A program made the translations under genes and the position numbers. Below are positions 9,684 to 55,278 of a DNA stretch of 64,000 nucleotides, in pieces (the stretch's first letter is position 1; each line of letters begins with the position of its first letter). The notes below the pieces were generated by a model. It had not been told where the DNA came from, did no database searches, and was given only the letters and a program-made list of their open reading frames with translations. Location of the stretch: NCBI GenBank assembly GCA_016211105.1, contig JACQSX010000050.1, positions 59,347 through 123,346 of the forward strand. Reading direction: 5' to 3'. The stretch comes from Acidobacteriota bacterium. Lineage in GTDB: Bacteria; Acidobacteriota; UBA6911; JACQSX01.

Positions 9684-10718
9684 ATGAAATTCGGAATAAC
9701 TCTTCCGTCTTTTACATGGCCTGGCATGGATTGTCCAATGGCCCGGCGCATCACCGTAGACATGGCCAGACGAGCCGAGGAGCTGGGATTTGACTCTCTT
9801 ACCGTATGGGACCATATGCTGAGCGCCCCAGGACTTTACGGTGGTTCCTGGTTGGATCCCCTGGTCGTGCTCGGAGGTGCGGCGGCGGTAACCAAAACGA
9901 TCCCCATCGGCACACATATCCTGGTGGTCCCCATCCGCCATCCCGTCCTGTTGGCCAAAGAACTGGCGACCATAGATTCCATCTCCGGAGGACGTCTCTT
10001 TCTGGGAGTCGGACCAGGATGGAATGAGCCGGAGTTCACCTCGATGGGCATCGCCATGCGGGAGCGCGGCCGCCGCACCGATGAGATCCTCGACGCCCTT
10101 AGGCTGCTCCTGACTCAAGACAACGTCTCCTTCCATGGCGAGTTCTTTCACTTTGATAACGTCACGATCGAGCCTCGACCCAAGAAATATTTCACCATCT
10201 GGGTAGCCGGGGGCTCGCGTGTTCCCGATCCACTTTCCCCTGACAAACCATACATGGTCAAAACCGTGCTGGAGCGCATCCTCAAACACGCAGATGTATT
10301 TACTTGCCGCGCCTCTGGAAAAACCGAATGGGTTGCGCGCGATTTCGATGCAGTGAAGCAATATCTACAATCCGCGGGACGAGATCCCAACACTCTTGGC
10401 CTGGCTCACGTACAGGCTGGATATCTCGTAGACACGGCTGACCGAGAGAAAGCTCTCTCGCTGCAGCGCAGACCGATGCAGACCATGATGGGCTCTCACC
10501 GAAGTTGGGAACATCTGCAGGAGTGCTACATGGTAGGCACCTTCGATGATATTGTAGCGCGCTTGAAATTTCTGGAGAGCAAGGGTCTAGAACACGTGAC
10601 AATCCACCCTGCGGCGCCCGAAATGGAACAGCTTGATTTGTGGATGAAGAAGATCATCCAACCAAATTTCAGAGGAAGGGATCGGCCTCAGGTGGCTAAT
10701 TATCACACGCGACATTAG
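9684..10718 (+). CDS. luciferase-like monooxygenase (LLM) family flavin/F420-dependent oxidoreductase
   Basis: 344 aa, MKFGITLP start and TIM-barrel LLM-like sequence; adjacent to F0-synthase genes. Confidence 0.75.
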   Translation: MKFGITLPSFTWPGMDCPMARRITVDMARRAEELGFDSLTVWDHMLSAPGLYGGSWLDPLVVLGGAAAVTKTIPIGTHILVVPIRHPVLLAKELATIDSISGGRLFLGVGPGWNEPEFTSMGIAMRERGRRTDEILDALRLLLTQDNVSFHGEFFHFDNVTIEPRPKKYFTIWVAGGSRVPDPLSPDKPYMVKTVLERILKHADVFTCRASGKTEWVARDFDAVKQYLQSAGRDPNTLGLAHVQAGYLVDTADREKALSLQRRPMQTMMGSHRSWEHLQECYMVGTFDDIVARLKFLESKGLEHVTIHPAAPEMEQLDLWMKKIIQPNFRGRDRPQVANYHTRH

Positions 10719-12010
10719 GTTAGTAAGCCGGTGCGGTCCCGCTTCTCTCTCCTGTGAAATCGAAATTCGTTCAGACGAGTGAGATGATGATAGGAACCAA
10801 ACCTCGTGGCGTCTTCCTCTGTCAATCGGTCAAGTGGTTCCGGCGCATCACCGTTTGGGTCATCAAATCGACGGAGCGTCTTGTACAGGGTTGAGCGCTC
10901 TACCGGAGTCCGGCCAGCGTCCCGGATGCAGCGCCGAAGATCGCTCGGCCGAACCATCTGTCCATAACTTGCGCCGGCCGCCGTCGAGATACTCTCATTA
11001 ATCAACGTGCCTCCTAGGTCGTTCGCACCGGCAGCTAAGCAAGCCTGCGAAAGCTTCATTCCTTCCTTTACCCAGGAAACCTGGAGATTGGGAATGTCTC
11101 GGTTGAGTACGAGACGACTGACGGCGTGCATCTTGAGCACTTCCATTCCAGAGGCTCCGGCTCGTACGCCCTTGACCAGACCGTCCCGGTACAAGGGCGC
11201 CTCCCAAGGAACAAAGCTCAGCGGCACAAATTCGGTGAATCCTCCCGTCCGCCGCTGCAAGTTACGAAGTAGAAGAAGGTGTCTGGCGCAATGACGCCCG
11301 GTTTCGAGATGACCATACATGATCGTGGCGGTAGTCGGGATGCCCAGCGAATGCGCAGTGGTGATCACTTCGATCCACTGGGCAGTGTTAATGCGACCGG
11401 GAGAGATCCTGTTGCGGAGCTCGTCGTCAAGAATCTCGGCGGAAGTTCCCGGTAGACTGCCGATTCCGGAAGCTTGTAATTCGGTTAGGTATTCCTTGAT
11501 GCTCATGCCGGAGCATTGCACTCCGTAAAGGACCTCCTCTGGCGAGAACGCGTGAATATGGATTTGAGGAAGTGCCTCTTTGATGGCGCGGCAAAGTCGG
11601 AGGTAGAGGTCTCCTTCCATATCCGGGGGAAGACCTGCCTGGATACAGACCTCCGTCGCCCCATAGCGCTCCGCCTCACGCGCCCGACGAATGATTTCTT
11701 CCTCGGGAAGATAGTATCCCTCCTGGCTGCGATGAGTTCTGCTAAACGCGCAAAAACTGCAGCGTTTAATGCAGACATTGGTGAAATTGATGTTGCGGTT
11801 GACCACATAGGTGACGACGTCTCCCACTTTTTCCCGGCGCAGATGGTCAGCCGCAATCAGAAGGGCGAGAAACTCAGCTCCAGTCACGGAAAATAGCCAT
11901 GTGACTTCTTCTTCCGTCAAATCCCGCTCTTCCAAGGAGCGCTGAAGAATCTGGGCCGCTTCAGAGCTGATTTCGCTCAGGAGCTTTTCAATGCCGATCA
12001 AATCTTTCAC
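10715..12010 (-). CDS. cofH: F0 synthase subunit CofH (radical SAM; 5-amino-6-(D-ribitylamino)uracil-tyrosine 4-hydroxyphenyl transferase)
   Basis: Radical SAM CxxxCxxC motif CIKRCSFCAF; CofH-like length (431 aa); GTG start at 12010, 9 nt after cofG stop. Confidence 0.85.
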   Translation of the reverse strand: MKDLIGIEKLLSEISSEAAQILQRSLEERDLTEEEVTWLFSVTGAEFLALLIAADHLRREKVGDVVTYVVNRNINFTNVCIKRCSFCAFSRTHRSQEGYYLPEEEIIRRAREAERYGATEVCIQAGLPPDMEGDLYLRLCRAIKEALPQIHIHAFSPEEVLYGVQCSGMSIKEYLTELQASGIGSLPGTSAEILDDELRNRISPGRINTAQWIEVITTAHSLGIPTTATIMYGHLETGRHCARHLLLLRNLQRRTGGFTEFVPLSFVPWEAPLYRDGLVKGVRAGASGMEVLKMHAVSRLVLNRDIPNLQVSWVKEGMKLSQACLAAGANDLGGTLINESISTAAGASYGQMVRPSDLRRCIRDAGRTPVERSTLYKTLRRFDDPNGDAPEPLDRLTEEDATRFGSYHHLTRLNEFRFHRREKRDRTGLLT

Positions 12011-12019
12011 TCCTCTGAT

Positions 12020-13144
12020 TCATGTAAAAGCCAGATACCCCTGCGGATCAGCCTCGCAGCGAAGTCGCCGGAGCAGGTGTTCGGGCAGATAGTGATCGTT
12101 CTCCACAATGTACTCGGGATAAACAGGAAAGCGGGCTCGCAGCTCAAATCCCGCGGTGTCCATCTCCCTGCGCATTCGGGCAATGTGCGGCCAGGGCGCT
12201 TCTGGATTGACATAGTCGATGGTCACCGGCGAAATCCCTCCCCAATCGTTGATCCCGGCATTCAGGTAGATCAAGTATGAGTCATTGCCATCATCGGACG
12301 CCAGGTTGGGCGGCACCTGGATATTCATCTCACCGCCGAAAATAATTCTCGCCGTTGCCACCACTTGAAGCATCTCTGCCAGCGAGGCCTCGCGGGCGTG
12401 CTCCATCGGCGTGCCTGGCTTGGCACGGAAATTCTGAATAATCACCTCCTGGATATGACCATATTGCTCTTGAAGATCCCGGATGGCAAGCAATGCCTCT
12501 ACGCGTTCCTCGACCGTCTCGCCGATCCCAATCAAAAGACCGGTCGTAAATGGAATCTTCAGCTCTCCTGCTAAACGAAGCGGCCTCAACCGTACTTCTG
12601 GCCTCTTGCTGGGAGCATACTCGTGAGGCCCACCGGCTTGACTTAAGCGTGCACTGCTGCTCTCCAACATCAGCCCCATCGAGGCGTTGACCTGCTTGAG
12701 ATCTTCGAGTTCGGAGCGACTGAGCGTTCCGGGATTACTATGGGGATAAAGAGCGGTTTCTTGGAGCACTAATGCGCACATATCGCGCAAATATTCCAGA
12801 GTGCTGTCATAACCATGTTCTCGCAGCCAAGATCGTGCTTCAGGATAGCGTTGCTCCGGCCGTTCCCCAAGCACGAACAGCGCTTCACGACAGCCCGACC
12901 TCTCACCCGCTCGCGCGACCGCCAGCACCTCCTCCGCACTCATGTACAGGTGTTCCCCTTGCTGTGGGCTTTGCCTGAAAATACAGTAACCACAAAAGTC
13001 ACGGCACAATCGCGTGAGAGGAATAAACACTTTCGGGGAGAAACTCACCACGCGACCTTTTTTTTTGTCGCGGATCGTACGGGCGGCGGCACACAATTCG
13101 TCCACATTCATGCTCGTATCAATCGCCATGTTGCCGGCTTTCAT
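12020..13144 (-). CDS. cofG: F0 synthase subunit CofG (radical SAM; 7,8-didemethyl-8-hydroxy-5-deazariboflavin synthase)
   Basis: Radical SAM motif CRDFCGYC near N-terminus, 374 aa; immediately upstream of cofH on same strand. Confidence 0.85.
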   Translation of the reverse strand: MKAGNMAIDTSMNVDELCAAARTIRDKKKGRVVSFSPKVFIPLTRLCRDFCGYCIFRQSPQQGEHLYMSAEEVLAVARAGERSGCREALFVLGERPEQRYPEARSWLREHGYDSTLEYLRDMCALVLQETALYPHSNPGTLSRSELEDLKQVNASMGLMLESSSARLSQAGGPHEYAPSKRPEVRLRPLRLAGELKIPFTTGLLIGIGETVEERVEALLAIRDLQEQYGHIQEVIIQNFRAKPGTPMEHAREASLAEMLQVVATARIIFGGEMNIQVPPNLASDDGNDSYLIYLNAGINDWGGISPVTIDYVNPEAPWPHIARMRREMDTAGFELRARFPVYPEYIVENDHYLPEHLLRRLRCEADPQGYLAFT

Positions 13145-13202
13145 GCGTTCTCACCGTTCCTGCTCGGCATGCCCGGAGTGACCAACGACCCAGATATTTA
13201 CG

Positions 13203-13877
13203 TTACTCATGCTCAAGGCCTAGCACTCGGTATCGAGCGAACTTGATTTTGTACCGGCGGTTGATCATGACGGCCAATAGAGTCATTGCTTCAAGCGCGC
13301 GACAGGCGCGCAGCGGGCCAGCATCGATCCAGCGCAGTCCCGGAATTTTAGATACCACTTCGAGCGTATGCTCTTTAGCCTCAACAGAATCGGAAGAAAT
13401 AAAATCGTCGCATTCTAACCCTATATCTCGTTTCACGAGCAAATGCGCCGGCAAAGTCTTAAATGCCGCCACCAAGGGCACACGGTCCGGAAGCCGTCCG
13501 CGAATATATTCCGCTCCTGAGCCTTCACCTAAGTCCAGCAGGCGTGGTCCCTTATCGAAAACCACGGGAACGGTGACGTCAACCAAGATTTGATTCGAGG
13601 AAAACTGGTCGCGATACTGCTGCAAAACCGAATCCACGTGGACGAAAGGCACGGTAAGGAACAACAGATCTGAGTTCGCCACCAAGGTACGATTGTCCAC
13701 TCCTGCAACTCTTTCCTGTCCCAACTGCCGGTTAAGCTCGCCAGCTACCTGCTGTGCTCGTTCCAGCGAGCGGGAGCCCAAAGCTATCTGCAGACCCGCC
13801 GCCGCTAAACGCAGCGCGATGCCTTGTCCCTCCGTCCCGGTCCCGCTGATCATTCCGATCTTACATTCCTGCTTCAT
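13203..13877 (-). CDS. fno: NADPH-dependent F420 reductase (F420:NADP oxidoreductase-like, Rossmann fold)
   Basis: N-terminal Rossmann GxGxxG and GSRS region; ATG at 13877 overlaps upstream stop as ATGA. Confidence 0.7.
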   Translation of the reverse strand: MKQECKIGMISGTGTEGQGIALRLAAAGLQIALGSRSLERAQQVAGELNRQLGQERVAGVDNRTLVANSDLLFLTVPFVHVDSVLQQYRDQFSSNQILVDVTVPVVFDKGPRLLDLGEGSGAEYIRGRLPDRVPLVAAFKTLPAHLLVKRDIGLECDDFISSDSVEAKEHTLEVVSKIPGLRWIDAGPLRACRALEAMTLLAVMINRRYKIKFARYRVLGLEHE

Positions 13878-14539
13878 TCTGCTATTTCGATAAAGTCCAG
13901 ACCCCTGCGTCGATGCCAATCGCTGGGATCCGCCAGATACTCCTTCACCTGAGCTAGCGCTTCAGAAGATAGCAAGCTGAGTGCGCGCCCCGTCTCCAGG
14001 CAGCGAGAGATTCCCACCAAAGAATGCAACTTCACGCCGACACGCGCCAGACTCGCTTCGCCCCCCTGTTCGCGGTCGACCAAAACCAGGCAACGAGAAA
14101 TCATGCATCCCGCTTCTCTGATCGCCTCAATGAATGACAGCTTGCTTCCTCCATCGGTAATCAGATCCTCAAAAAGCAGAACTTCACCTTTTGGCACGCC
14201 TTCCAGACGACTCCCGGTACCGTGTTCCTTTTTTTTCTTGCGCACATACACGAAAGGCTTGTCCAATCTTTCCGCCAACCAAGCGCCAAAAGGGATTCCC
14301 GCAGTTTCGCCACCAGCAATACAGTCGGCAGCGATCTGGCGCTCGTGATACAGGCGTTGAGCAAAGCTAACAATGACACTGCGCGTGCCCGGATAGGAGA
14401 TCAAAAGACGACAGTTAATGTAGAGAGGTGTGAAATTCCCGGAGGACAATTGAAAGGGTTCCGTGCTGCTGACCTGGATCGCCCGATGCTCCCACAACAA
14501 TATTGAGATCAGTTCCCCTATTTTCTGATCCAGTCTCAT
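13874..14539 (-). CDS. pyrE: orotate phosphoribosyltransferase-like (type I PRTase)
   Basis: FQLSSGNFTPLYINCR and PRPP-binding loop LLFEDLITDGGS; internal ATG at 14539 chosen over longer track ORF. Confidence 0.65.
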   Translation of the reverse strand: MRLDQKIGELISILLWEHRAIQVSSTEPFQLSSGNFTPLYINCRLLISYPGTRSVIVSFAQRLYHERQIAADCIAGGETAGIPFGAWLAERLDKPFVYVRKKKKEHGTGSRLEGVPKGEVLLFEDLITDGGSKLSFIEAIREAGCMISRCLVLVDREQGGEASLARVGVKLHSLVGISRCLETGRALSLLSSEALAQVKEYLADPSDWHRRRGLDFIEIAE

Positions 14540-14875
14540 GAGGCTCGCTTGTATCAAAAATCTGATCTGATTTAAAGTGAGTGTAAATTTTACCCCACGG
14601 GCTCCGTAACTCTTTCTTGCATTCCGACCCCTCTGTGTACGGCAAGACTTGGTTGAGAGAAGAAATGCGTTTAAAAATTTTTGGGTGTTCTTTGGCATGT
14701 CGATTGCTATCACCCACTTGAATAGTTGTAGACTCGGGCCCTTCCAGGGACTAGAGGTACAGTCCCCGCAAGAGCCCCTATCGACGAGCGAGGCAGCCTA
14801 CCCCTGGGCAATGCCACAGCGGAGCGCAAACACTCCAAACCGGGATGGCCCTCATCGTCGGCCCGCGGAGGCACC

Positions 14876-15379
14876 ATGAAAGTTCGAGAAATTATGAGCG
14901 TCAATCCAAAGTCCTGCAGACCTGAAACCAACCTAGCCGCAGCAGCGATGATCATGTGGGAGAACGACTGCGGCGTGGTTCCCGTGGTGGACGACAAAGG
15001 GAAAGTAACTGGAATGATAACAGATCGCGATATCTGTATCGCCGTGGCTAGCAAGCACCGGCTGGCCTCAGAAATTCCAGTGAGCGAGCTCATATCGGGA
15101 AGAGTTTATAGTTGCGCGCCCGATGACGATCTGAAGGCCGCGCTCAAGACCATGGAAGAGAAGCGAGTGAGGCGTCTGCCTGTGGTCGACAAGGCGGGCG
15201 TGCTCCAAGGGATTCTCTGTATGAATGATATCGTCCTTCAGGCCGAGGAGATCAGAGGCAAACAGGTCCCAGAGCTTTCCCTCGAGGACGCCATCCGAGT
15301 GCTCAAGGCGATCGACCGGCACAGGATTCTGAAGCCGGAGAAAGAACTCCAGCGGCCCAAGACAGTTGCGGTCGCCTAG
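14876..15379 (+). CDS. CBS domain pair protein
   Basis: Two CBS-like repeats (RLPVVDKAGVLQGILCMNDIV etc.); GGAGG 5 nt upstream of ATG. Confidence 0.8.
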   Translation: MKVREIMSVNPKSCRPETNLAAAAMIMWENDCGVVPVVDDKGKVTGMITDRDICIAVASKHRLASEIPVSELISGRVYSCAPDDDLKAALKTMEEKRVRRLPVVDKAGVLQGILCMNDIVLQAEEIRGKQVPELSLEDAIRVLKAIDRHRILKPEKELQRPKTVAVA

Positions 15380-15758
15380 CCTAACTTCGTCACCAAGCCG
15401 GCAGCCTCAGGACTTGCAAGGATTGTTGCTGACCCTTGAGTCACCAACGGCGCATCCAATTGTATGCAAGTATCCAACTTAGTAAATCTTGCTCTTTGCC
15501 CGCTGTAAATTCTTACCGCAGGAGGCGCACCCAATCGCCTGACGTTCGACCAATTCAATCGAATATCAGCAAAAACCGCCATCGTGCGTTGCTTGATCCC
15601 ATCCGGGAGAAATGTGGCTCGGCAAATGCACAAGGGAGGGGAAAAACCTACCAATTTCTCGACAGCCGGGGGCCACCGCGCCCCCGGCGCAATGATTGGC
15701 AGCGGACAGGTGTTCCGACACGCCAAGCGCAAAGTTACGAGCGTGAGGCCGACTATTT

Positions 15759-16802
15759 TTAACTGCAAACAGACGGTTCATCGGCTGCATCAGGCTGGAC
15801 GACCTGTTTGATCGCTCTCAATGCCGCCAAATGGAGATGGCCGTTGGACGCGATAAGACCTTTATTGCGAGTCAGCGACCGACCGGTGGTAAAATCCAAT
15901 GGGCAGCCTTCCAGATCCGTTAAACGGCCCCCGGCTTCTTCCACAATTAGAGAGCCCGCAGTTTGATCCCAAATCCTTTCATGATAGCCGTTCCTGGTGA
16001 GCCGGAAGAGGAGGTCGGCTGCTCCTGCCGCCAGCACCGCGTACTTGGCCTGACTATCCATGAGTACTAACGGAGGGGCCACTTCCAGGACACGAACCAG
16101 TTCATTGATTTGTCTCACATTCGTATGTTCATCTTCATAGGATCGGAGCAATCGCGCCTGGCTAGGATCACTACAACAAGAGACGTGAAGACGCTGAAAT
16201 TCTGTACGGTTCAACGGAGTACTCCACGTTCCATGATCTCGAACCGCAACCAGCAACGATCCCGAATCCGGGCTGGCTTCTCCGCGACCACTCAGCAGAC
16301 TCGCTCGTCCAGACTCGATCAGCAGCCGAGGACAGCCGAGGATACCAATCTGAACCTGTCCGCTTACCACCAAAGCTAGAGCCACCACGTACTGGTCACC
16401 CCGTAGAAATCCCTTCGTGCCATCGATTGGGTCTAGCGTCCAGAACCGTTCACCTGGTGAACCACGACCGTGGTCGATCCAATCTAAAATGTTTTCCGGT
16501 GTAGCGCTGGGACGAAGGCGGCTTACAAACTGATGAACCATCGCCAGGACCGCACCCGCCTGTGGCGCACGCAGGGGGGAAGAGTCCTCCTCGGCCAACA
16601 GTGGATCGTCCGGGAACGCGGTCGCCAGAAGGTACCCCATCACAGCCTGGACCACATAATCGGCAACCGTTACAGGAGAGCGATCTTCTTTGGCCAACGC
16701 GTCACCATTCATCTCACACTGAATCTGCCGCGCCAGACAGGTGGTTTCCTTCACGGCTTGCAAGGCAAACCGAACTTCAGGGATCCGGAGGTCGAAGGTC
16801 AT
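15759..16802 (-). CDS. 3'(2'),5'-bisphosphate nucleotidase, HAL2/SAL1-like (inositol monophosphatase superfamily)
   Basis: WTLDPIDGTKGF and WDQTAG motifs; ~347 aa (longer than typical bacterial CysQ); last gene of a 5-gene operon. Confidence 0.7.
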   Translation of the reverse strand: MTFDLRIPEVRFALQAVKETTCLARQIQCEMNGDALAKEDRSPVTVADYVVQAVMGYLLATAFPDDPLLAEEDSSPLRAPQAGAVLAMVHQFVSRLRPSATPENILDWIDHGRGSPGERFWTLDPIDGTKGFLRGDQYVVALALVVSGQVQIGILGCPRLLIESGRASLLSGRGEASPDSGSLLVAVRDHGTWSTPLNRTEFQRLHVSCCSDPSQARLLRSYEDEHTNVRQINELVRVLEVAPPLVLMDSQAKYAVLAAGAADLLFRLTRNGYHERIWDQTAGSLIVEEAGGRLTDLEGCPLDFTTGRSLTRNKGLIASNGHLHLAALRAIKQVVQPDAADEPSVCS

Positions 16803-16820
16803 CTTCCCAATCCGATCACC

Positions 16821-18032
16821 TCAGCCAATCTGAAAGAGACCGGCGGTCAGTTCCCGACAGAACACAGGCATTCGAGCCAGTTCCGCGGTTACCAGGTCAT
16901 GCATGACGCCAGAGACATCTGAAAGGCGAACTCCGGAATTGAGGTGCCCTTGCACATAAACGACTTCAGGTTGGTCAACAGGTTTGCCAATCTGGCTACA
17001 CAGCCACACGATAACTTCTTCCAAGCCGCGTATCTCGGTTTGGAGCTTATGAGCCAGTGAATACGCAAGTACATTGTAGATTTTTCCGACGTGACTCATG
17101 GGATTCTTCCCTGCTGCAGCCTCCGATCCCGCGGGACGGTTGAACGAGATCAGGCCATTGACGCGGTTGCCCCTACCCACTTCCCCAGAATCAGCATCCT
17201 CAGCAGAAGTGCCCAAGACAGATGAATAGATTCCAACCAGACCGACTCCAGGCCGATCGATAGGATTGAGCCTCAGCTTCAACTCATCCAGCGCGTCCAG
17301 CCGACTCTGTAAGTAGGCCAGAACCGCTTCATAAATCCTTGCCTTACTTCCGAAATATTTCCTTTCGCTCTCCAGATACCTTTCTATCAAAGGCATCGCG
17401 ACTGTAAGATGCAAACTTCTGCCGGTCCGCACACCCATCACCTTGACATCTTCTCCCGTTTCCGCAAATTGCTTTTTGAAGCTCTCCGAGTTCAAATAGC
17501 GTTCGGTCTCTAATACCAGACGCTCAGTCTCACTTAGAGGAGCATAGCCCACTGCGGCAGAGGTGTCGTTGGCGCCGATCACGCCGTCGGCGCGTCGGTA
17601 CAAGTCCGCCAGCGCTTCCGATCCCGGCTTTAGCTCTACTTCATAATGTAAATGGCGATCGGGATCAACGTGGCGTAGGTTCTTTCGCACCCAGCCCTTG
17701 GCCGCTTCAATCGCGATGCTCTCCACATCTATTTTCTGTTCCGCCCAAAATGAGGTGGCCCGATCCCCAAGGATGAGGCGCATCGGCTCTAAAATGCGGC
17801 CTCCGCCCCATCGATGTTCTGCCCGACCCGCGATCAAAAGCGCTTTATCGCAGTTATAGTGAAGCATACCGCCTGCTTGCTCCAAATAAGCCTTCGATAG
17901 AGCCTGCGATACATTCTCCATAATACCGTCACACACTGTATCGGGATGACCCGTTCCTTTTCGCTCCACAATCTCCACTTCAAGCTCGCTGGTCTTCAGT
18001 CCTTGCGCCTGCTCGATATATATCCGGTTCAT
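16821..18032 (-). CDS. archaeal-type S-adenosylmethionine synthetase (methionine adenosyltransferase, MAT family)
   Basis: ERKGTGHPDTVCDG, GANDTSAAVGYAPLSETERLVLETE, GRGNRVNGLIS, GKNPMSHVGKIYN motifs match the archaeal MAT family rather than bacterial MetK; AAGGA RBS before ATG 18032. Confidence 0.8.
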   Translation of the reverse strand: MNRIYIEQAQGLKTSELEVEIVERKGTGHPDTVCDGIMENVSQALSKAYLEQAGGMLHYNCDKALLIAGRAEHRWGGGRILEPMRLILGDRATSFWAEQKIDVESIAIEAAKGWVRKNLRHVDPDRHLHYEVELKPGSEALADLYRRADGVIGANDTSAAVGYAPLSETERLVLETERYLNSESFKKQFAETGEDVKVMGVRTGRSLHLTVAMPLIERYLESERKYFGSKARIYEAVLAYLQSRLDALDELKLRLNPIDRPGVGLVGIYSSVLGTSAEDADSGEVGRGNRVNGLISFNRPAGSEAAAGKNPMSHVGKIYNVLAYSLAHKLQTEIRGLEEVIVWLCSQIGKPVDQPEVVYVQGHLNSGVRLSDVSGVMHDLVTAELARMPVFCRELTAGLFQIG

Positions 18033-18043
18033 GGCTCTATTCC

Positions 18044-18583
18044 TTAGAGATACCCCTGTTCCCGCAGTTTTTCCACTACCCTGCGAGCGGCCCTGGCCGG
18101 ATCCTCCCACTCTCCGGAAACCACCACTTCAGGATTTTCGGGAGGTTCGTAGGCCGCCTGCAAGCCGGGAATCATCGTTGCCTCCCCCACCTCGGCCTTA
18201 CGGTAAATCCCCTTCGGATCTCTGGCCATACATATGTTCAGAGGGCACTCAACAAAAACTTCGATAAACCTTGTGATGCGCTGCCGGGCGCGATCCCGAT
18301 AGACGCGCCGGTTAGCGGTGGCATCGAAGATCACAGAAATCCCGTGTTTGGTAAGAAGCTCTCCAACATAGGCCATCGCCCCATACAAGATTTCTCTCTC
18401 CCCTTCACTGTAAGTTGGATGAGGGGTAAGGATCTGGCGCAACGCGTCAGATTCTAACACCTCCGGCGCCGTTTCTCTGCAAGATAGCTCCCGGACCAAG
18501 GCCTTGGTGAGTGTAGACTTTCCAGAAGCCGGCAAACCGGTGATCCAGATTGCAAACCCCGGTTCCACGCTTAACTCCCACAA
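18044..18583 (-). CDS. cysC: adenylyl-sulfate (APS) kinase family protein
   Basis: P-loop GLPASGKST and C-terminal FIEVFVECPLNICMARDPKGIYRKA resembling APS kinase. Confidence 0.75.
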   Translation of the reverse strand: MWELSVEPGFAIWITGLPASGKSTLTKALVRELSCRETAPEVLESDALRQILTPHPTYSEGEREILYGAMAYVGELLTKHGISVIFDATANRRVYRDRARQRITRFIEVFVECPLNICMARDPKGIYRKAEVGEATMIPGLQAAYEPPENPEVVVSGEWEDPARAARRVVEKLREQGYL

Positions 18584-19659
18584 TAGCGATTGACCTGCTC
18601 TGGATCAAAAGCTTGGGACTCAAGCACCGCCCGAGCAAAGGCAAATAGCTTTTGGCGCACGGTTTCTCTCAAGGTCGGATACCACACGGGGCTGGCCATG
18701 ACGAGCGCTCGAAAGGCAAAAAATGGCGCGGCCACCTCTAGAATCTGCTGTTCACCACTCCCTTGCAAATAACGTTCCCAGAATCGACGAAACAGAATCT
18801 CCAGGTTTCCTTCCAGACGCTCGCCGCGCTGAAGCGAAAAGAACAGGTAGTTCATTGTCAAACTTGCGACATCGTCGGCCGGCTCACCCCACTCCCCGCG
18901 CGCGCGATCCAGAACGGTGAAGTCGGTTCCCTCACGAAACAATATATTCCAAGGGTGAAAATCTCCATGAACTTGGCGAAGTCGATGGGTATAAGACTTA
19001 AGCTTCCAACGCCAACGCACGCAGAAATGCTCGATCTCTTCCAGCAGTCTCGATGTTATAAAGCCAAATCGCGCCGGATAACCATCCAGAATGCCCATGA
19101 TACATTCTCCGTGGCCAACCAATTCACGGACGCGACGAATATAGAGTTCCGGGTCGCGACCGCGCTCGCGGTGGATTTCAACCAAATAGTTGCACAGGGC
19201 ATCCGCTCTAGCAGTATCCAGATCGGCGAGGCAGCCGCCATCTCGCAGGCGTTCGAGGTCATGGAAATACTCTTGACCGCTCACATATTCGTTTAAGATG
19301 AAGAACTCTCGCACGTCTCGTAAGGAGAGGAGTTCCCCTTCTTTACCAAAACCTCCTACATCCAGACTGTGGGCATGCTGAGGCAATTGGTTGTAAGTAT
19401 GGTGACTCCAGAGTAATATCCGCGCTCGATCTGCCATATGCTGATGATCAAAAGGACCTGGACTGATCGTTTCCAGCACCACCGACTGACGCCGGCCAGA
19501 AACTTCGCATTCCAAACGAACCGGGACACCATAGCCATAACCTTTGAGCGCCTCCGACGAGCGCGGTTCCCCCAGCAAAGACACACCCAGAAGTCGGACA
19601 CGCTCCCTGAAGACGGACGATAGATAGACCTGCAATTTACTTTCATCCAACTCGAACAT
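18571..19659 (-). CDS. APH-fold small-molecule kinase (aminoglycoside phosphotransferase / choline kinase superfamily)
   Basis: Catalytic HGDFHPWNILF motif; internal ATG 19659 preceded by GAGGTGA; 13-nt gap after radical SAM gene. Confidence 0.7.
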   Translation of the reverse strand: MFELDESKLQVYLSSVFRERVRLLGVSLLGEPRSSEALKGYGYGVPVRLECEVSGRRQSVVLETISPGPFDHQHMADRARILLWSHHTYNQLPQHAHSLDVGGFGKEGELLSLRDVREFFILNEYVSGQEYFHDLERLRDGGCLADLDTARADALCNYLVEIHRERGRDPELYIRRVRELVGHGECIMGILDGYPARFGFITSRLLEEIEHFCVRWRWKLKSYTHRLRQVHGDFHPWNILFREGTDFTVLDRARGEWGEPADDVASLTMNYLFFSLQRGERLEGNLEILFRRFWERYLQGSGEQQILEVAAPFFAFRALVMASPVWYPTLRETVRQKLFAFARAVLESQAFDPEQVNRYCGS

Positions 19660-19672
19660 TTTCACCTCAGCC

Positions 19673-20791
19673 TCACGTCCACTCGGGAAGCGCCTGCTTA
19701 CGTTCTGCAGGGTCCCGGCCGGCCAGCCCAACCCCGTCGATGCGAGCGCCACAATCCGGGCACTGAGAATCTTCCATGTAACTTTCCAACACCGAAAGTC
19801 CGTATCTTGAGATCAAGACTCGTTCGCACTGGTAGCAATAACTGCTTTCGCCTACCTCCCCTGGAACGTTGCCTAGGTAAACATACCGGAGCCCCACGTC
19901 CAAACCGATCTTCCGGGCCTTACGGAGAGTGCTCACAGGAGTCCTTGGCGTATCGACCATTTTGTAGGCGGGATAGAACTGACTAATATGCCAAGGGATA
20001 TCGTCGCCCACGCTCTTGAGGAACTGAGCAATCTGCCTCAACTCGCGGTCGGAGTCATTGCAACCAGGGATGACCAAGGTAGTGACCTCAATCCAGATTC
20101 CCAGTTCCTTGTACCTTCGGATCGAGTCCAGCACAGGTTGCAACCTGGCGCCACAGATCTTCTTATAGAACTCGTCTGTGAACCCTTTGAGATCGATGTT
20201 GGCCGCGTGAAGATACGGCCGGATGGTAAGCAGCGCTTCAGCGCCGATATACCCATTAGTGACAAACACATTCTTCAGCCCTTCTTTGGTCGCACATCGC
20301 GCCGTATCATATGCCAGTTCAAAAAAGACGGTCGGCTCAGTATAAGTGTAAGCAATCACCTCACAGCCAGAGGCTTTCGCCGCCTGCACGATTTGTTCGG
20401 GAGTGACCTTTTCCCCAGGAATTCCTCCCTCAAACCGAGAGCGGATTGGCTGGAGATCCCCCCAAAGAACTTCCGCCTTGTGGCGGTGAGCCCTTTTTGG
20501 ATATTGCGCAATTTCATAGTTCTGGCAGAAAAAGCAACGGAAATTACATCCCACCGTCGCAACAGAATATGCTCTCGCGCCGGGATAAAAATGAAAAAGT
20601 GGCTTCTTCTCGATCGGATCAATTTCTCGCGATACCACCCGATCGTGGACGAGGGTATAGAGTTGTCCGCCATGGTTGACCCGGACTCCGCAAACACCCG
20701 GCCTCCCCTCCCCTATACTGCAGAAATGGCTACAGAGGGTACACCGGACTCGGTCGCCGGCCAGTTTCTCGTAGAAAAGTGCCTCCCTCAT
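19673..20791 (-). CDS. AmmeMemoRadiSam-type radical SAM enzyme (PFL-activase-like)
   Basis: N-terminal FYEKLAGDRVRCTLCSHFC plus radical SAM CNFRCFFCQN; family-typical layout. Confidence 0.8.
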   Translation of the reverse strand: MREALFYEKLAGDRVRCTLCSHFCSIGEGRPGVCGVRVNHGGQLYTLVHDRVVSREIDPIEKKPLFHFYPGARAYSVATVGCNFRCFFCQNYEIAQYPKRAHRHKAEVLWGDLQPIRSRFEGGIPGEKVTPEQIVQAAKASGCEVIAYTYTEPTVFFELAYDTARCATKEGLKNVFVTNGYIGAEALLTIRPYLHAANIDLKGFTDEFYKKICGARLQPVLDSIRRYKELGIWIEVTTLVIPGCNDSDRELRQIAQFLKSVGDDIPWHISQFYPAYKMVDTPRTPVSTLRKARKIGLDVGLRYVYLGNVPGEVGESSYCYQCERVLISRYGLSVLESYMEDSQCPDCGARIDGVGLAGRDPAERKQALPEWT

Positions 20792-21196
20792 AATTGGATA
20801 CGCGCCTTATTGTACCCGCCTTTTTGCCTCCTCAAACAATGTGAGAAACCTTCCTTTGTGTTAGAGGACGTCACTAGGATTTCGGGCTTCACCACAGAGA
20901 GTTCGGGTCGGCCTCATTTCCGCGATCGTTCATTCACAGTCTGCAGCGCAAACATCGTGCCAGAACGCGATCGAAGATCGCGTATTCGCTGTCTCTCGCG
21001 AAAGTCCCTTACGCGCAAACCAATCGCTCGATTCAGCAAGGTTGAGACAGTAAAAATTACCGGAAGGACATGGAGCTCAGTTAACGATTTTGGGATGGGG
21101 CAGCCACCTTAACCTTCAATCAATAGAGGATATTCTTCTTTGGATAGACTCTTGCGTGCAGCCGTTCTTTCTAGGCAAACGGCCTACGGAGGAGCT

Positions 21197-21394
21197 ATGT
21201 TGAAAAACTTCACTTTTCTATCCATCTCAGCAGCATTTCTGAGCGTGTTGATTGGCTTTATCGCGCGAGTCCAGGATTCGCGCATTTTCATATCTACGCG
21301 TAGCTGGCTCCTCGCGGGCGCTTTTTTCTTGCTGGTTGCGATTTGCTTTGAGCTACTATCGATTGACCAGCACCTGGAAAAACCTCGTACCTAG
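21197..21394 (+). CDS. small membrane protein (2 predicted TM helices)
   Basis: ATG with GGAGG 5 nt upstream; two hydrophobic stretches. Confidence 0.4.
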   Translation: MLKNFTFLSISAAFLSVLIGFIARVQDSRIFISTRSWLLAGAFFLLVAICFELLSIDQHLEKPRT

Positions 21395-21509
21395 CAGGAA
21401 AATCCCTTACTCGTTCCCATGAGTCAAGCCGTCAGCAGGTTTCAGCCCTTGCTCCGTTCGCCCCAGGAACAGGCAGGCGGGCACCGACAGTCAGGTCGGC
21501 AGGAGGTTT

Positions 21510-22034
21510 TTAGTCCCTGTGCCACGACACGCGGGCGAGCTCATTTTCATGAGAGAAATCATAGCGTACTTTGCCACTGAAGGCCTTTTCCAACGCATGA
21601 CCAAGTCGTTGCGCAAGGTGTTGCGTGGTCGTTGAAACAACGAGCCGACCGCTCTCATCCGTTTCCCATTTCATGATCCGGGCCAACGGATTATCCTCAG
21701 CCGCTCGATCAGCTTCGTTTCTAAGAAGTCGGCGTACTTCGTTACGGTGCGTTTCCAGGAAAGCACCCTCCAGATAGAGAAAGCCACGCGGAATCCCCAC
21801 CTTTTGCTGTTGGCAAGCTGGACAGACGACAGCTTGCGCCGGATGCCAGTGCTTGTGTTTGCGATTCCCTTTCCGAACCTCGGCGGCAGCCACCCAACGT
21901 CGGTCGGAGTAAACTGCACCGCACACATTGCACACTTCTGGTTCCACAGGGGCACGCGGCGTATGGTGGCGTCCCGCCTCGTGATCCACACGCTTGGTGA
22001 AGGTGGCGTTTGTATATCGCTTACGGCTTCGCAT
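21510..22034 (-). CDS. zinc-ribbon protein, function unknown
   Basis: Two CxxC pairs (CNVCG...CPAC); AAGGAGG 5 nt upstream of ATG. Confidence 0.55.
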   Translation of the reverse strand: MRSRKRYTNATFTKRVDHEAGRHHTPRAPVEPEVCNVCGAVYSDRRWVAAAEVRKGNRKHKHWHPAQAVVCPACQQQKVGIPRGFLYLEGAFLETHRNEVRRLLRNEADRAAEDNPLARIMKWETDESGRLVVSTTTQHLAQRLGHALEKAFSGKVRYDFSHENELARVSWHRD

Positions 22035-22195
22035 GCAACCTCCTTCTGAAACTTAACCGCCCTTCGAATAAGCAATAAATGGGCCGACCCTCCTGCCTTC
22101 GAATCGGCAAGATTCGCCGACCGGAGTGGACTTTGAATTGCTTAATTCCCTTCGCATTGCGCGCCAAGACACGCAAGGAAATCCGATACCGAACG

Positions 22196-22627
22196 ATGTC
22201 CAAAAAATCGATCCGTTCACAAGACCTGGGAATCAATTTAAAATCCAAACACGAGGAAGACCTCTTTAGATGGTTCTTAGCTTGCCTCCTGTTTGGCAAG
22301 CCGATCCAACAAAAAGTCGCACAGCACACTTACTTTGAGTTCGTCAGGGAAGGACTCGTGACTCCTGACGCCATCCTCAAAGCTGGCTGGGACAAACTGG
22401 TCGAAGTGCTCGACCGCGGCCATTATGTACGCTACGATTTCTCCACCGCAGCAAAACTTTTGCACATCTGCAGGGAATTAGAGGACCGATACGGCAGCGT
22501 CACCGGCCTTCTCGAACAGTCAGAAAACAGAAAATCCTTGATCCGGCGTCTGCAGCAGTTCGATGGAATAGGACCGGTGACCACTCGTATTTTCCTTCGC
22601 GATGTCGGGCCGATATGGTTTCAATAA
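22196..22627 (+). CDS. small helix-hairpin-helix protein (possible DNA-glycosylase-like fold)
   Basis: HhH-like FDGIGPVTTRIFLRDV near C-terminus; internal ATG chosen. Confidence 0.45.
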   Translation: MSKKSIRSQDLGINLKSKHEEDLFRWFLACLLFGKPIQQKVAQHTYFEFVREGLVTPDAILKAGWDKLVEVLDRGHYVRYDFSTAAKLLHICRELEDRYGSVTGLLEQSENRKSLIRRLQQFDGIGPVTTRIFLRDVGPIWFQ

Positions 22628-22678
22628 ATTTTCCAAGAATGTTGGAACTATACTGCCCGACGCTGCAGAGACGGTTGT

Positions 22679-24322
22679 TTAACTGGCCTCCGTCGGCGTC
22701 AACAGCGACTTCAACCCCCGTATCTGGCCGGCGCGGCGGAGCTTGCGCAGTGCCTGCTTTTCAATTTGACGAATTCTCTCTCGAGTCACCGAGAATCTCT
22801 CTCCCACTTCCTCCAGCGTGCGTTCACTGTCATCCCCAATTCCAAAACGCATGCGGATAACCTGCTCTTCTCGCGGAGTCAGCGTTTGCAGCACCACTGC
22901 GGTTTTCCCCTTCAGGTCACTGGTAAGAACTGACTCAACAGGAGAAACGGCACGACGATCCTTGATAAAGTCACCCAAGTGATCGTCTTCCTCTCCGATA
23001 GGCGTTTCTAAAGAGACCGGCTCTTGGGCAATCTTCAACGTCTCTTGAACCTTCCAAACAGGAAGCTCCAACTTCTTGGCAATCTCCTCCGACGTTGGTT
23101 CCCGCCCATATTCCTGCACCAAGCTGCGTGAGACTCGGACCACTTTGTTGATCGTCTCCACCATATGAACAGGAACACGGATCGTACGGGCCTGATCCGC
23201 AATCGCCCGCGTGATCGCCTGACGGATCCACCACGTCGCATAGGTGCTAAATTTATACCCCCGTCGATACTCAAACTTATCGACCGCCCTCATCAACCCA
23301 ATGTTGCCTTCCTGAATCAAATCCAGAAACTGCAGCCCACGGTTCATGTACTTCTTGGCGATGGAAACGACCAGCCGCAGATTGGCCTCTACCATTTCCT
23401 TCTTGGCAATGTCGGCCTCCAACTCCCCAGTCTTGATTGCCGCGAGTGCCCGCTTCAACTCTGGCACGCTTTGCAGCGCCGATGCCTCAATCTCCTTCAT
23501 TTCCCGTCGAATCTGTCGCAAACGCATCTTGATCTTCTTGTGCTCCTCCCGCGCTAGTGGACCTTTTTGCAGCCTCCGTAAGGTTAGCGACTCGCGTTGC
23601 AGAGCCAGTAGCCGGTTGACCCGCAACTTGATCAAGTCAGTCAAATGAGCGCGCGTACCTGCCGCCATCTCCAAATTGCAAATCCGATGGGCCATAGCAA
23701 CACGCAAACGCGCCAACCGATAGAGGAATCTCTTGTAGGGGGAGGATCCTTTGCGCACTCTCTCCAGCTTCTTGCAAAGCCGAGCCGCTTCCGTTTGCAG
23801 CTCCACAATTCCTCCCACAACATGCAACACTCGCCGGCAGTGTTTCTCAGTAGCCTTGTCGCTGATCTCTTCTTCACGAAGCTGGATAAAATCTTTAAGT
23901 TCATGCTCACCCCGGCGCAGCGCCTCCCCTGTCTTGATGACGTCGTTGACCACTAGAGGACAGCGCGACAATGCCTTGAGCACGGTATTTTGGCCCCGCT
24001 CGATGCGCTTGGCAATCTCCACTTCCCCTTCCCGGCTCAATAAGGGAACCGCTCCCATCTCGCGCAGGTACAATCTAACAGGGTCGGTGTCTTGCCCCAG
24101 CTCTTCAAATTCAAGCTCCGATTCTTTCTCCTCCCACCCTTCCTCAGGGTGATCGGCTTTCCTTTGAGCGCCTGGAAGTCTGGTCTCCAAGCTCGCGATT
24201 TCATCGACCGCTCCCAATAAGCCAAACGCGCCCTCTGGAGCCACCAAAAACTGCCCAGGGTAACGCCGGATGTCGTCGCTCTCATCGAAGTGTTGCTTCT
24301 TTTCTTTGCTGAGGTCGATCAA
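22679..24322 (-). CDS. rpoD: RNA polymerase sigma-70 factor RpoD
   Basis: Regions 2-4 conserved ([53 protein letters not shown]); TTG start. Confidence 0.9.
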
Positions 24323-34173: not shown

Positions 34174-34836
34174 TTAAACGTAGGGATCGATGCGGAGCTG
34201 GAGATTGACACAACGCACACCTGGCGCGTGGCGGATTGCACCGATCACCGCTTCCTTTTCTGCCCAGCAGCGTACCCACCCAGACAAGGTCACAGCGCCG
34301 TCGACAACGACAATTTCAATATGCTCCCTCCCAGCCTGGACACTCCGCTTCAGCGCTTGCTCAAGCTGGCCGCGCAAAACATCCGGATGCACTTGCGGCG
34401 CTCTGACAACGATCTTATTGATTACACCACGCACGCTCATAAGGCATCGCATTGCCCGCTCGGCATCCTCCCGCTCCCGCAAGAGCTGAACCGTGCCCTG
34501 CAGAGTTACCCAACCATTCGTCACATAGGACTGGATCCGCCCGTCAGGAACGAGAACATTCCACTCGAGCGCTTGTCGGACGGCGCGGGCGATCTCCGCG
34601 TCAGTACGAATGAGACTGCGCGGAATTTTCACATCAATATCATTCATTACGTCCAACACCCCGACTACGCGATAAGCTGCTTCTTGAGCCGCCAGCTTTT
34701 TCGCGAAACTGCTCACCGAGCCCACTAAAGTAACGGCCCCTTTCTCGACTTCCACTCCAATGTTGGATTCTCCGACCCCCGTGTCCCACTGAAGCTCTTG
34801 AAGCACCTCTTTTCGGATTCCCACGTCGCTCATCAT
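34174..34836 (-). CDS. BON domain protein (OsmY-like, two BON domains)
   Basis: Two BON-like repeats (VEVEKGAVTLVGSV... / IEIVVVDGAVTLSGWV...). Confidence 0.75.
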   Translation of the reverse strand: MMSDVGIRKEVLQELQWDTGVGESNIGVEVEKGAVTLVGSVSSFAKKLAAQEAAYRVVGVLDVMNDIDVKIPRSLIRTDAEIARAVRQALEWNVLVPDGRIQSYVTNGWVTLQGTVQLLREREDAERAMRCLMSVRGVINKIVVRAPQVHPDVLRGQLEQALKRSVQAGREHIEIVVVDGAVTLSGWVRCWAEKEAVIGAIRHAPGVRCVNLQLRIDPYV

Positions 34837-34871
34837 GACTTCGTTCGTTTTTCCCAAAATACAAACGTCTT

Positions 34872-36035: not shown

Positions 36036-36365
36036 CGCTTTCTCCTTCCTAATCAATTTCCAGAAAAGGAATAATCTGAGCTTAATCGCTTCGATTTCGC
36101 GCAATTATGGATCTTGGAAAGGGGCGAAAAAATCAGTGAAAATCGCTTTTTTTTGTGGGTGTTCGTCCTACAACTCGGCGCGGGATTTACCGGAGGTTCG
36201 TCACGGCGGCGACGCAAGAGCACATGCGGGTTGAGGCAACAGACCTTAGGCGCTTGCTGAGAAACCGAGGCTGTTGACTAGACAAGACACAATTTTCGGG
36301 CGCTCACTACCGCTCGCGCCTCGGATTTTCAAAGCAAATATCATCACATTTCTCAATCTGGATAC

Positions 36366-39239: not shown

Positions 39240-39665
39240 TCACTTCCCCGCGGGAAAGCGAATGCGTTTCCAAATGCTGACCACGAACATGGATATCCCA
39301 AGCATTTGCAGCAATGAAGAGATGATCAGGAGATTACCCGCCGGCTGCCAATCCGCAAACGGTTCAAAAACGAAGCGCAAAATCAATCCCAGGTTCAACA
39401 GGAAATAGTTCGCCCACGCCATAGGTTCGCGCCCGACCTCGCGCAGCGGCACTCCAGACGGACGCGGAAACATCCAGTACGCCACGCCCATAATCATCAT
39501 CATGACAAATCCGACACTGATCATATGATTATGAATTGTGACAAAGTGGTGCGGCATATTGATCCTGAACCATCCTTTGTTTGCCAGCATAAATCCACCT
39601 AAGGCGGTTCCTAAAATCAAATAGACGATGGCCGTCTTCACGAACAGTCGGTGCAACGTCAACAT
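39240..39665 (-). CDS. integral membrane protein, 4 predicted TM helices, function unknown
   Basis: Hydrophobic 141-aa ORF with His cluster HHFVTIHNHM. Confidence 0.55.
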   Translation of the reverse strand: MLTLHRLFVKTAIVYLILGTALGGFMLANKGWFRINMPHHFVTIHNHMISVGFVMMMIMGVAYWMFPRPSGVPLREVGREPMAWANYFLLNLGLILRFVFEPFADWQPAGNLLIISSLLQMLGISMFVVSIWKRIRFPAGK

Positions 39666-55277: not shown

Positions 55278-55278
55278 C

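Follow-up and report, generated by a model that had tools for sequence, protein, structure and literature searches.

A conserved two-kinase cassette with a non-canonical APS-kinase-family member, set in a five-gene unit of an Acidobacteriota bacterium

We examined a 64,000-nucleotide (nt) stretch of DNA from an Acidobacteriota bacterium (GenBank assembly GCA_016211105.1, contig JACQSX010000050.1, positions 59,347 to 123,346 of the forward strand; below, the window). In it, a reading of the sequence alone, hereafter the original prediction, had singled out five tightly packed minus-strand genes. They code, in this order, for a radical S-adenosylmethionine (SAM) enzyme of the AmmeMemoRadiSam type (rSAM), a kinase of the APH/ELK fold (APH), a P-loop kinase of the adenylyl sulfate (APS) kinase family (APSK), an archaeal-type methionine adenosyltransferase (MAT) and a HAL2-type 3'(2'),5'-bisphosphate nucleotidase (HAL2) (Table 1). 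We listed the open reading frames (ORFs) of the window and weighed their starts against homologues and public gene calls. The listing agreed with the predicted positions of all five genes, which are co-directional and lie 2 to 18 nt apart or overlap. Thirteen nt separate the rSAM and APH genes, the APH and APSK genes overlap by 13 nt or, from an alternative APSK start, leave a 2-nt gap, and gaps of 11 and 18 nt precede the MAT and HAL2 genes, respectively.

Profile searches bore out all five family assignments. The rSAM matched TIGR04337 (340.7 bits, cut-off 220, in two stretches) and PF04055 (87 bits), the APH matched PF01636 (29.2 bits, cut-off 23.2), and the APSK matched PF01583 (126.7 bits). 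The MAT matched PF01941 over its full length (492.6 bits) and NF003363 (575.8 bits, cut-off 557), and the HAL2 protein, in which the DPIDGT motif is present, matched TIGR01330 (280.1 bits, cut-off 267.05) and PF00459 (136 bits). We also chose 52 non-overlapping ORFs of at least 90 residues across the window and scanned those outside the cluster against Pfam. None of the 52 corresponded to AMMECR1 (PF01871), Memo, ATP sulfurylase, CysD/CysN or a bacterial MetK; that the window lacks AMMECR1, Memo and sulfate adenylyltransferase had been predicted, as had the fact that the gene set is not a described system, which holds.

An exact match to the sigma-54 consensus lies upstream of the rSAM gene (Table 1). 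The window contains two such matches, both intergenic and upstream of minus-strand genes, for about 0.1 expected by our own estimate from the sequence length and the 10 fixed bases. Strand, spacing and this candidate promoter indicate that the five genes are probably one co-transcribed unit. A sigma-70 promoter scan of the operon region gave nothing above chance, and terminator-like sites in the scanned 8-kb region were at chance level (8 found, 8.5 expected). A riboswitch or other RNA element before the operon or the MAT gene was considered and rejected, as an Rfam scan of positions 14700-22700 gave one weak match only, to HgcC (E 0.5).

Across genomes, the conserved part of this unit turned out to be its two kinase genes. 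We scanned one genome of each GTDB species for relatives of the APH-like kinase; at least 535 genomic stretches code for one, and the best 80 were fetched with 10-kb flanks. Further cassette loci were added to these, giving about 86 other loci overall (85 in the sigma-54 count below), which carry numbers with the prefix L. Flank content was determined by tblastn with the window proteins and by all-against-all clustering of the flanking ORFs. By tblastn, an APSK-like gene lies directly downstream of the APH-like gene, on the same strand, in 78 of the 80 species-level loci, and in about 66 of those 78 its projected start overlaps or abuts the APH stop codon. MAT, HAL2 and rSAM genes were found near the cassette in 3, 2 and 4 of the 80 loci, respectively, so that the five genes do not form a conserved set. 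Apart from the pair, no family of flanking ORFs exceeds 23 loci in the clustering.

Carriers of the pair include Acidobacteriota, Nitrospirota, NC10, metagenome-assembled genomes (MAGs) labelled Delta- or Betaproteobacteria, Planctomycetales, Chloroflexota and others, and the family keeps 55 to 70% identity across phyla. The APH-like kinase of the window is unusually conserved, at 60 to 70% identity with proteins of several phyla. Because the three closest sampled relatives all differ from the window, with the pair alone in L096 (kinase 70% identical), the pair with a MAT gene and an rSAM gene 2.6 kb off in L091 (69%), and the pair with archease and RtcB genes in L092 (69%), the five-gene order is specific to this lineage. 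The conserved entity is the APH and APSK two-kinase cassette, previously uncharacterised. A tblastn search of PLSDB found no plasmid carriers. Three loci labelled "uncultured Enterobacteriaceae" (L039, L046 and L066) have the cassette in a Burkholderiales-like context, and these labels look unreliable; another (L065), with a kinase 54% identical to that of the window, is labelled Candidatus Culexmicrobium, which we take to be an archaeal lineage.

An exhaustive hidden Markov model search over 1.84 billion cluster representatives showed that the cassette-kinase family is compact, with 310 clusters at E <= 1e-30 and 1,013 at E <= 1e-3. Among these representatives, the two kinases are fused in both orders: APH then APSK in P0376, P0388 and P0392, and APSK then APH in P0386, whose cluster occurs on several contigs of up to 11.5 Mb. 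A triple fusion, P0473 (753 residues; 8 contigs, the longest of 788 kb), continues from APH and APSK into a C-terminal HD domain that matches solved HD-family hydrolases, namely 5dqv (E 1.6e-9), 3djb and E. coli YedJ (3gw7); no other P-loop domain of the family diverges as much as that of P0473. Several independent contigs, from MAGs labelled Deltaproteobacteria or Myxococcota, bear these fusions, and none was found among the top 120 homologues of either kinase or in the 78 paired loci. That the kinases are fused in either order argues strongly for their acting together.

The APSK departs from true APS kinases at signature positions. It scored below the cut-offs of the CysC models (TIGR00455, 136.7 versus 138.7 bits; NF002059, 142 versus 244; NF003013, 106 versus 163), and is 35 to 40% identical to solved APS kinases, the best being archaeal (7yq0 and 8a8h, E 2e-33). 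We aligned it with five of these, 7yq0, 8a8h, 5cb6, 2gks and 2pey, which come from archaea, a cyanobacterium, Aquifex and human. All five have LDGD, GFS, (I/V)SPY and KG(L/F)TG where the window protein has LESD, TYS, TANR and MIPG. Substitutions at the signature positions are kept in 77 cassette-partner proteins: Phe to Tyr, (N/H)xR to FY, (I/V)SPY to ATA(x)R and (L/F)TG to VPG are family-wide, and LDGD to LESD characterizes the unfused clade. Fused and more distant members keep DGD or DSD and share Tyr, FY and ATA(x)R, which makes these three changes the robust signature of the family.

The alignment also shows what is retained, namely the P-loop (GLPASGKST), the second Asp of DGD, both Arg residues (LESDALR and EGER) and the RDPKG(I/L)Y lid. 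In the published APS-kinase structures, the second Asp is the catalytic base and the two Arg residues are clamps for the 5'-phosphosulfate. The preserved P-loop, Asp and Arg residues therefore point to an acceptor that resembles a nucleotide and bears an anionic 5' group, but is not APS. By analogy, the protein probably works as an APS kinase does, phosphorylating a ribose 3'-OH beside an anionic 5' substituent. The 3'-phosphoadenosine and sulfate chemistry of the original prediction thus becomes an analogy rather than a finding, as the APSK belongs to a distinct subfamily with altered signature residues. The accompanying suspicion that no sulfurylase feeds this kinase was well placed: ATP sulfurylase and CysD/N are missing from the window and were not seen among the annotated neighbours of the pair, and the same holds for 3'-phosphoadenylyl sulfate (PAPS) reductase and sulfotransferase. 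Public databases call all top homologues of the APSK adenylyl-sulfate kinase, probably by over-annotation.

Compared with APS kinase proper (CysC, EC 2.7.1.25; PF01583/TIGR00455), the APSK thus has the fold, P-loop, catalytic Asp, two Arg residues and lid in common, and differs by its altered signature residues and by having an APH-fold kinase as partner or fusion instead of a sulfate adenylyltransferase. There is a precedent for a member of this family with a non-APS acceptor, likened here by its described function, not by sequence. Cj1415 of Campylobacter jejuni, which the Raushel laboratory reportedly found to be the cytidine diphosphoramidate kinase of O-methyl phosphoramidate capsule biosynthesis, is an APS-kinase homologue annotated as cysC that 3'-phosphorylates a non-APS nucleoside 5'-diphospho-X to yield a PAPS-like group donor. 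Unlike the APSK, it has no APH-fold partner, and the glutamine kinase, hydrolase and cytidylyltransferase of the Campylobacter pathway do not accompany the cassette.

Sequence methods placed the APH only weakly; its best profile match to sequences in the Protein Data Bank (PDB) had an E value of 0.016, and the NCBIfam model of MtnK gave no match at E <= 0.01. An AlphaFold model (predicted local distance difference test 78.7, predicted template-modelling score 0.80) has the APH/ELK fold, and Foldseek ranked Rv3168, maltokinase and MtnK at the top (TM-scores of about 0.56 to 0.59). In the structure comparison, 5-methylthioribose (MTR) kinases came closest, by a small margin over PsiK, Rv3168, a steroid kinase and maltokinase. 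At 12 to 13% identity to 2olc and 2pyw, the likeness is at the fold level only. There is no variation in the catalytic loop HGDFHPWN or in the Mg-binding Asp, as would be expected of the active small-molecule kinase that we predict, and the model mildly suggests a lean to ribose-type substrates. The fold-level likeness extends to MtnK and DrdK, the APH-fold sugar 1-kinases that act on MTR and 5-deoxyribose in the salvage of SAM by-products; in contrast to those systems, no partner gene of the MtnA/MtnB or DrdI/DrdA type stands beside the cassette APH.

Table 1. Position and properties of the five genes of the unit, its candidate promoter and associated features; positions are in the window unless a locus is named.
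Feature	Position	Strand	Properties
CBS-pair protein	14876-15379	+	167 residues; two PF00571 CBS domains; convergent with the end of the operon
HAL2-type 3'(2'),5'-bisphosphate nucleotidase (HAL2)	15759-16802	-	347 residues; last gene of the unit
Archaeal-type methionine adenosyltransferase (MAT, SAM synthetase)	16821-18032	-	403 residues; ORF extends to 18110, start at 18032 favoured by homologues and public gene calls
Non-canonical APS-kinase-family P-loop kinase (APSK)	18044-18583	-	179 residues from TTG; public call starts at 18568 (174 residues); second cassette gene
APH/ELK-fold small-molecule kinase (APH)	18571-19659	-	362 residues; longest ORF 18571-19752, start at 19659 favoured by homologues and public gene calls; first cassette gene
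AmmeMemoRadiSam-type radical SAM enzyme (rSAM)	19673-20791	-	372 residues; start ATG; first gene of the unit
Sigma-54-type -24/-12 element, TGGCACGATGTTTGC	20948-20962	-	Exact TGGCAC-N5-TTGC; 157 nt before the rSAM ATG; candidate promoter for all five genes
BCAM0308-family zinc-ribbon protein	21510-22034	-	NF040826, 130 bits (cut-off 100); 718 nt upstream of the rSAM gene
rSAMs representing the subclades	window 19673-20791; L050:11609-12742; L091:6490-7587		

Sigma-54-type elements also precede the cassette elsewhere. We scanned the 85 other loci for matches at 9 or more of the 10 positions, with GG and GC fixed, at most 300 nt upstream of the APH gene. Sixteen loci had an element for 1.0 expected from the same sequences, and five of the matches were exact for 0.2 expected. 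The 16 are five Acidobacteria (L002, L003, L053, L054 and L096), a betaproteobacterium (L008), a Planctomycetales MAG (L040) and nine Nitrospiraceae, in which TGGAAC-N5-TTGC lies about 29 nt before the kinase start. In L096, a divergent gene for a PAS-sigma-54 activator adjoins the pair. Exact sites were further found before a CBS-Usp-rSAM cluster in L086 and before an rSAM-containing unit in L088.

Two other regions of the window touch on sigma-54 control. At 34174-39157, on the minus strand, a gene for a triple-BON (OsmY-like) protein overlaps one for a sigma-54 activator without receiver domain (34872-36104), together with genes for a NarL/GerE-type response regulator and a PAS-HisKA_3 histidine kinase; the activator gene is the nearest candidate for activating the sigma-54 promoters of the window. 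The second exact site (39856-39870, minus strand) lies about 190 nt upstream of a minus-strand ORF of 141 codons (39240-39665), divergent from a phosphoketolase gene (39951-42422, plus strand). The product of that ORF matches part of cytochrome oxidase subunit I below the threshold.

The neighbourhoods of the cassette are highly variable and contain recurrent families. These are tandem universal stress proteins (USPs; 23 loci), CBS-pair proteins (12 to 16), nicotinate phosphoribosyltransferase (NAPRTase; 11), DUF6600 (11), triple-BON proteins (8), a fusion of hibernation-promoting factor (HPF, S30AE) with a cold-shock domain (CSD; 6, and also L090 to L092) and the CCA-adding enzyme (6). Balon-like baeRF proteins, with 101 bits to Pfam baeRF_family3 and a weak match to the Balon-family model, stand by the cassette in seven loci. 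The window itself holds BCAM0308-family, CBS and BON genes, and no USP was found in it. Homologues of its CBS-pair protein occur in the fetched pair flanks of 15 other loci, often directly upstream. Homologues of its BCAM0308-family protein, whose gene is probably transcribed separately from the operon, stand beside the pair in five Burkholderiales-type loci (L033, L056, L060, where the gene is 25 nt upstream on the same strand, L066 and L073).

This set of neighbours has been reported for Balon/RaiA hibernation and hypoxia operons and regulons (PMC10901736, PMC3721108, PMC12071387). The BCAM0308 family is named for a gene of the low-oxygen-activated (lxa) locus of Burkholderia cenocepacia (PMC3721108), and an APH-like phosphotransferase lies within the DosR regulons of Mycobacterium tuberculosis and M. 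abscessus (PMC8701281, PMC12071387). The paper on the lxa locus names neither an APH nor an APS-kinase gene in its main text (PMC3721108). In all, BCAM0308-family, USP, CBS (Hrp1-like), BON/OsmY-like, HPF/RaiA, Balon-like baeRF, NAPRTase and RtcB genes are common to the surroundings of the cassette and to the lxa locus, the DosR regulon and Balon/RaiA operons taken together. The M. tuberculosis DosR regulon includes the APH-like Rv2004c, which has an APH plus P-loop architecture. It is reasonable, from the genes around it, to place the cassette provisionally in a dormancy or low-oxygen context.

The three other genes of the unit also recur beside the pair, rarely and in differing orders. A MAT of the NF003363 type follows the pair directly, with 4-nt overlaps or short gaps, in the window and in L004, L091 and L093; in L011 the pair is followed by a MAT of another subfamily (NF003366), and L052 has another MAT gene 1.6 kb from the cassette. 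A HAL2 homologue (51 to 54% identity) comes directly after the pair in L002 and L003. The rSAMs matching TIGR04337 split into two subclades, the L050 type, which scores 651 bits over the full length, and that of the window and L091, which scores about 340 bits in two stretches and carries an insertion of about 20 to 25 residues after CxxxCxxC, with members that share about 60% identity across Acidobacteria, Bathyarchaeota and ANME archaea. Both subclades adjoin the cassette, the rSAM gene preceding the pair in the window and coming downstream of it in L050, L053, L054 and L057; L092 has a 37%-identical rSAM match about 4 kb downstream of the pair. The recurrence of MAT, HAL2 and rSAM genes in differing orders suggests some functional link to adenosyl or nucleotide metabolism, and it is too rare to define a system.

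The window rSAM carries CxxxCxxC (CNFRCFFC) and extra Cys clusters, and shares about 60% identity with many proteins of bacteria and archaea that bear the name AmmeMemoRadiSam rSAM. It passes the TIGR04337 cut-off as does the rSAM of the AmmeMemoRadiSam system, which combines it with AMMECR1 and Memo; it differs by lacking both partners within 64 kb and by belonging to the lower-scoring subclade with the insertion. The missing partners had been thought remarkable. They were equally absent from the five loci with relatives 58 to 69% identical that we examined (L086, L088, L090, L094 and L095), and close relatives of the window rSAM stand in unrelated gene contexts. The possibility that AMMECR1 or Memo hides downstream of the full-length-type rSAMs of L050 and L053 was dropped, as the genes there encode a metallo-beta-lactamase-fold protein, a permease and ABC transporters. 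A role in anti-phage defence was likewise set aside, since PADLOC gave marginal matches only, such as a viperin-like one (E 1e-4) for the rSAM.

In three lineages (L094:4685-6596, L090:4786-8080 and the window, 19673-22034), an AmmeMemoRadiSam-type rSAM gene has a BCAM0308-family (NMD3-like zinc ribbon) gene close by. In L090, the two accompany class II ribonucleotide reductase, HPF-CSD and BON genes, an arrangement that resembles the B. cenocepacia lxa locus. Within the 718-nt gap between the two genes of the window, an ORF of 84 codons on the opposite strand (21140-21394, plus strand) encodes two hydrophobic stretches and has no family match; a terminator-like hairpin (21263-21283) lies inside it.

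Just downstream of the operon is a cluster of genes related to coenzyme F420 (9684-13919). It encodes an F420-dependent LLM oxidoreductase (9684-10718, plus strand; TIGR03619, 198 bits) and, on the minus strand, CofH (10715-12010; TIGR03551, 480 bits), CofG (12020-13144; TIGR03550, 457 bits) and the NADPH-dependent F420 reductase NpdG (13203-13919; TIGR01915, 159 bits). A link between these genes and the cassette was rejected as coincidental, since no homologue of cofG, cofH or npdG was found near the pair in any other locus. The next ORF (13874-14713, minus strand) resembles orotate phosphoribosyltransferase with an N-terminal extension of about 60 residues, overlaps the npdG start by 46 nt, and falls under the pyrE cut-offs (NF001729, 191 versus 245 bits; TIGR00336, 106.2 versus 106.8). 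Genes for phosphoribosyltransferases are neighbours of the cassette in L084/L085 and L093 too, besides the 11 loci with NAPRTase. Farther away (53619-58965), a gene for a 552-residue protein with collagen triple-helix repeats and a DUF7452 domain stands beside one on the opposite strand for a 1,228-residue protein with SdrD B-like and RTX repeats.

The explanation that we favour, with a probability of about 0.5, is that of a sigma-54-promoted unit built around the conserved two-kinase cassette, with a role in stress, dormancy or low oxygen and not in sulfate activation, and with a lineage-specific five-gene order. The mechanism proposed here draws on homology, structure, fusions and context. 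The unit would be transcribed from the sigma-54 promoter, and the APH-fold kinase, whose nearest likenesses are MTR kinases, and the neofunctionalised APS-kinase-family member would work on one substrate or pathway. Together they might carry out two sequential ATP-dependent phosphorylations of a ribosyl or adenosyl nucleotide-like metabolite, the P-loop partner, by analogy with APS kinase, acting on a ribose 3'-OH next to an anionic 5' group. A partner phosphohydrolase, of the HAL2 type here and possibly the HD domain of the triple fusion elsewhere, would remove or recycle the phosphate. The cassette would be expressed within a stress, dormancy or low-oxygen programme, and in this acidobacterial lineage it would have been joined by the rSAM, the archaeal-type MAT and HAL2.

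Several points weigh against this explanation. Each accessory gene occurs in about 3 to 7 of the approximately 86 loci, and some of these cases may go back to a common ancestor instead of separate recruitments. The sigma-54 element is recognised by its fit to the consensus, and the nearest activator gene in the window (34872-36104) is 14 kb away. The change of LDGD to LESD is not universal, so the sequences leave room for residual APS-kinase activity. The dormancy context rests on the names of neighbours, and USP and CBS genes are numerous in these genomes. Finally, many of the loci are MAG contigs with uncertain taxonomy labels.

Unlikely, in our view, is the broader proposal that all five genes constitute one dedicated pathway, in which a modified adenosyl or sulfated metabolite is made or recycled, or rSAM by-products are salvaged. 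In the salvage version, an MtnK-like kinase would phosphorylate 5'-deoxyadenosine or 5-deoxyribose while the MAT resupplies SAM, and MtnK-type kinases are indeed the known route for salvage of 5-deoxyribose and MTR (the dihydroxyacetone phosphate shunt). The closeness of the APH model to MTR kinases fits this proposal, as do the 2- to 18-nt gaps between the genes, the single sigma-54-type motif before the first of them and the recurrence of MAT, rSAM and HAL2 each beside the cassette in other lineages and orders. It is set back by the absence of the full set from all of the approximately 86 other cassette loci, the nearest relative (70%) having the pair only, and by the window containing no nucleosidase, phosphorylase, isomerase or aldolase of the known salvage routes. 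It also gives no role to the universally conserved APSK-like partner, and close relatives of the rSAM occur in unrelated contexts. The original prediction is partly supported: a functional link among the five genes gains partial support from the return of MATs of two subfamilies, HAL2 and TIGR04337 rSAMs of two subclades to the cassette in varied lineages and orders, and the five-gene pathway finds no support as a conserved entity.

At the other extreme, the five genes might be juxtaposed with little or no pathway meaning, a housekeeping MAT, a phosphatase of adenosine 3',5'-bisphosphate (pAp) and an orphan rSAM having landed by the cassette and perhaps sharing its regulation only. The high variability of the cassette neighbourhoods and the generic stress genes among the neighbours are consistent with such an origin; the MAT and HAL2 score as ordinary equivalogs and, no bacterial metK being present in the window, the archaeal-type MAT may be the housekeeping enzyme. 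Chance fits poorly with a MAT gene directly after the pair in four lineages and a second MAT subfamily in the same position, with two TIGR04337 subclades beside the pair, and with a phosphohydrolase theme that comprises HAL2 in three loci and the HD fusion in another lineage. By our rough estimate, a single-copy family would be expected about 0.3 times among the approximately 1,300 neighbouring genes. We regard mere juxtaposition as rather improbable.

Ordinary sulfate activation, with the P-loop gene as a true CysC, HAL2 as a CysQ-like pAp phosphatase and the sulfate adenylyltransferase encoded elsewhere, is what the public annotation as adenylyl-sulfate kinase implies. The PF01583 match is strong, TIGR00455 falls just 2 bits under its cut-off, the catalytic Asp, P-loop, both Arg residues and lid are kept, and a pAp phosphatase is the classical partner of PAPS use. 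This role is nevertheless very unlikely because the changes at signature positions are family-wide and the scores stay under the NCBI CysC cut-off; the altered positions are identical in the five solved APS kinases. The APSK is, moreover, paired or fused with an APH-fold kinase, its annotated neighbours and the window lack the sulfurylase, PAPS reductase and sulfotransferase noted above, and a motif-based sigma-54 link and a dormancy-type context are atypical of a cys regulon.

The least probable proposal, and a very unlikely one, is that the pair acts on RNA, marking tRNA or rRNA for translational silencing by phosphorylation of its 3'-terminal adenosine, or inactivates an aminoglycoside-type drug: neighbours such as the CCA-adding enzyme (6 loci), RtcB/archease, HPF, Balon-like factors and tRNA_edit and the weak KTI12 and PSTK matches of the P-loop protein hint at it, and PMC8701281, citing Doddam 2019, mentions a weak streptomycin phosphotransferase activity of the DosR-regulon gene product Rv2004c, but the KTI12 and PSTK matches (1e-9 to 1e-10) are far weaker than that to APS_kinase (1e-36), no RNA-binding domain is detectable, the likeness of the APH to known resistance APH subfamilies stops at the fold, and 55 to 70% identity across phyla is unusual for resistance genes.

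Within the favoured explanation of a sigma-54-promoted two-kinase cassette, a more specific version can be formulated, which is speculative and, taken as a whole, quite improbable. In this version, the cassette would make a new 3'-phosphorylated adenosine-type nucleotide (pAp, 3'-phospho-ADP or a PAPS-like 3'-phospho-nucleoside-5'-phospho-X donor) that serves, controlled by sigma-54, as a signal or cofactor in dormancy or at low oxygen, with HAL2 or the HD domain as the off-switch. SAM synthesis and radical-SAM chemistry might feed or use the product in some lineages. A variant would have the pair 3'-phosphorylate the terminal adenosine of RNA.

These observations bear on annotation and on physiology. 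The AmmeMemoRadiSam rSAM family gains a first, weak genomic association outside AMMECR1 and Memo, with BCAM0308-family proteins, CBS and USP genes and the cassette. In public databases, thousands of cassette P-loop proteins carry the name adenylyl-sulfate kinase; should they not be CysC, what is predicted on sulfur assimilation in Nitrospira, NC10, Acidobacteriota and many MAGs would be wrong to that extent. The cassette sits amid the ribosome-hibernation, USP and hypoxia-type genes of slow-growing environmental bacteria, and an understanding of it could reveal a new nucleotide-type metabolite or signal of persistence.

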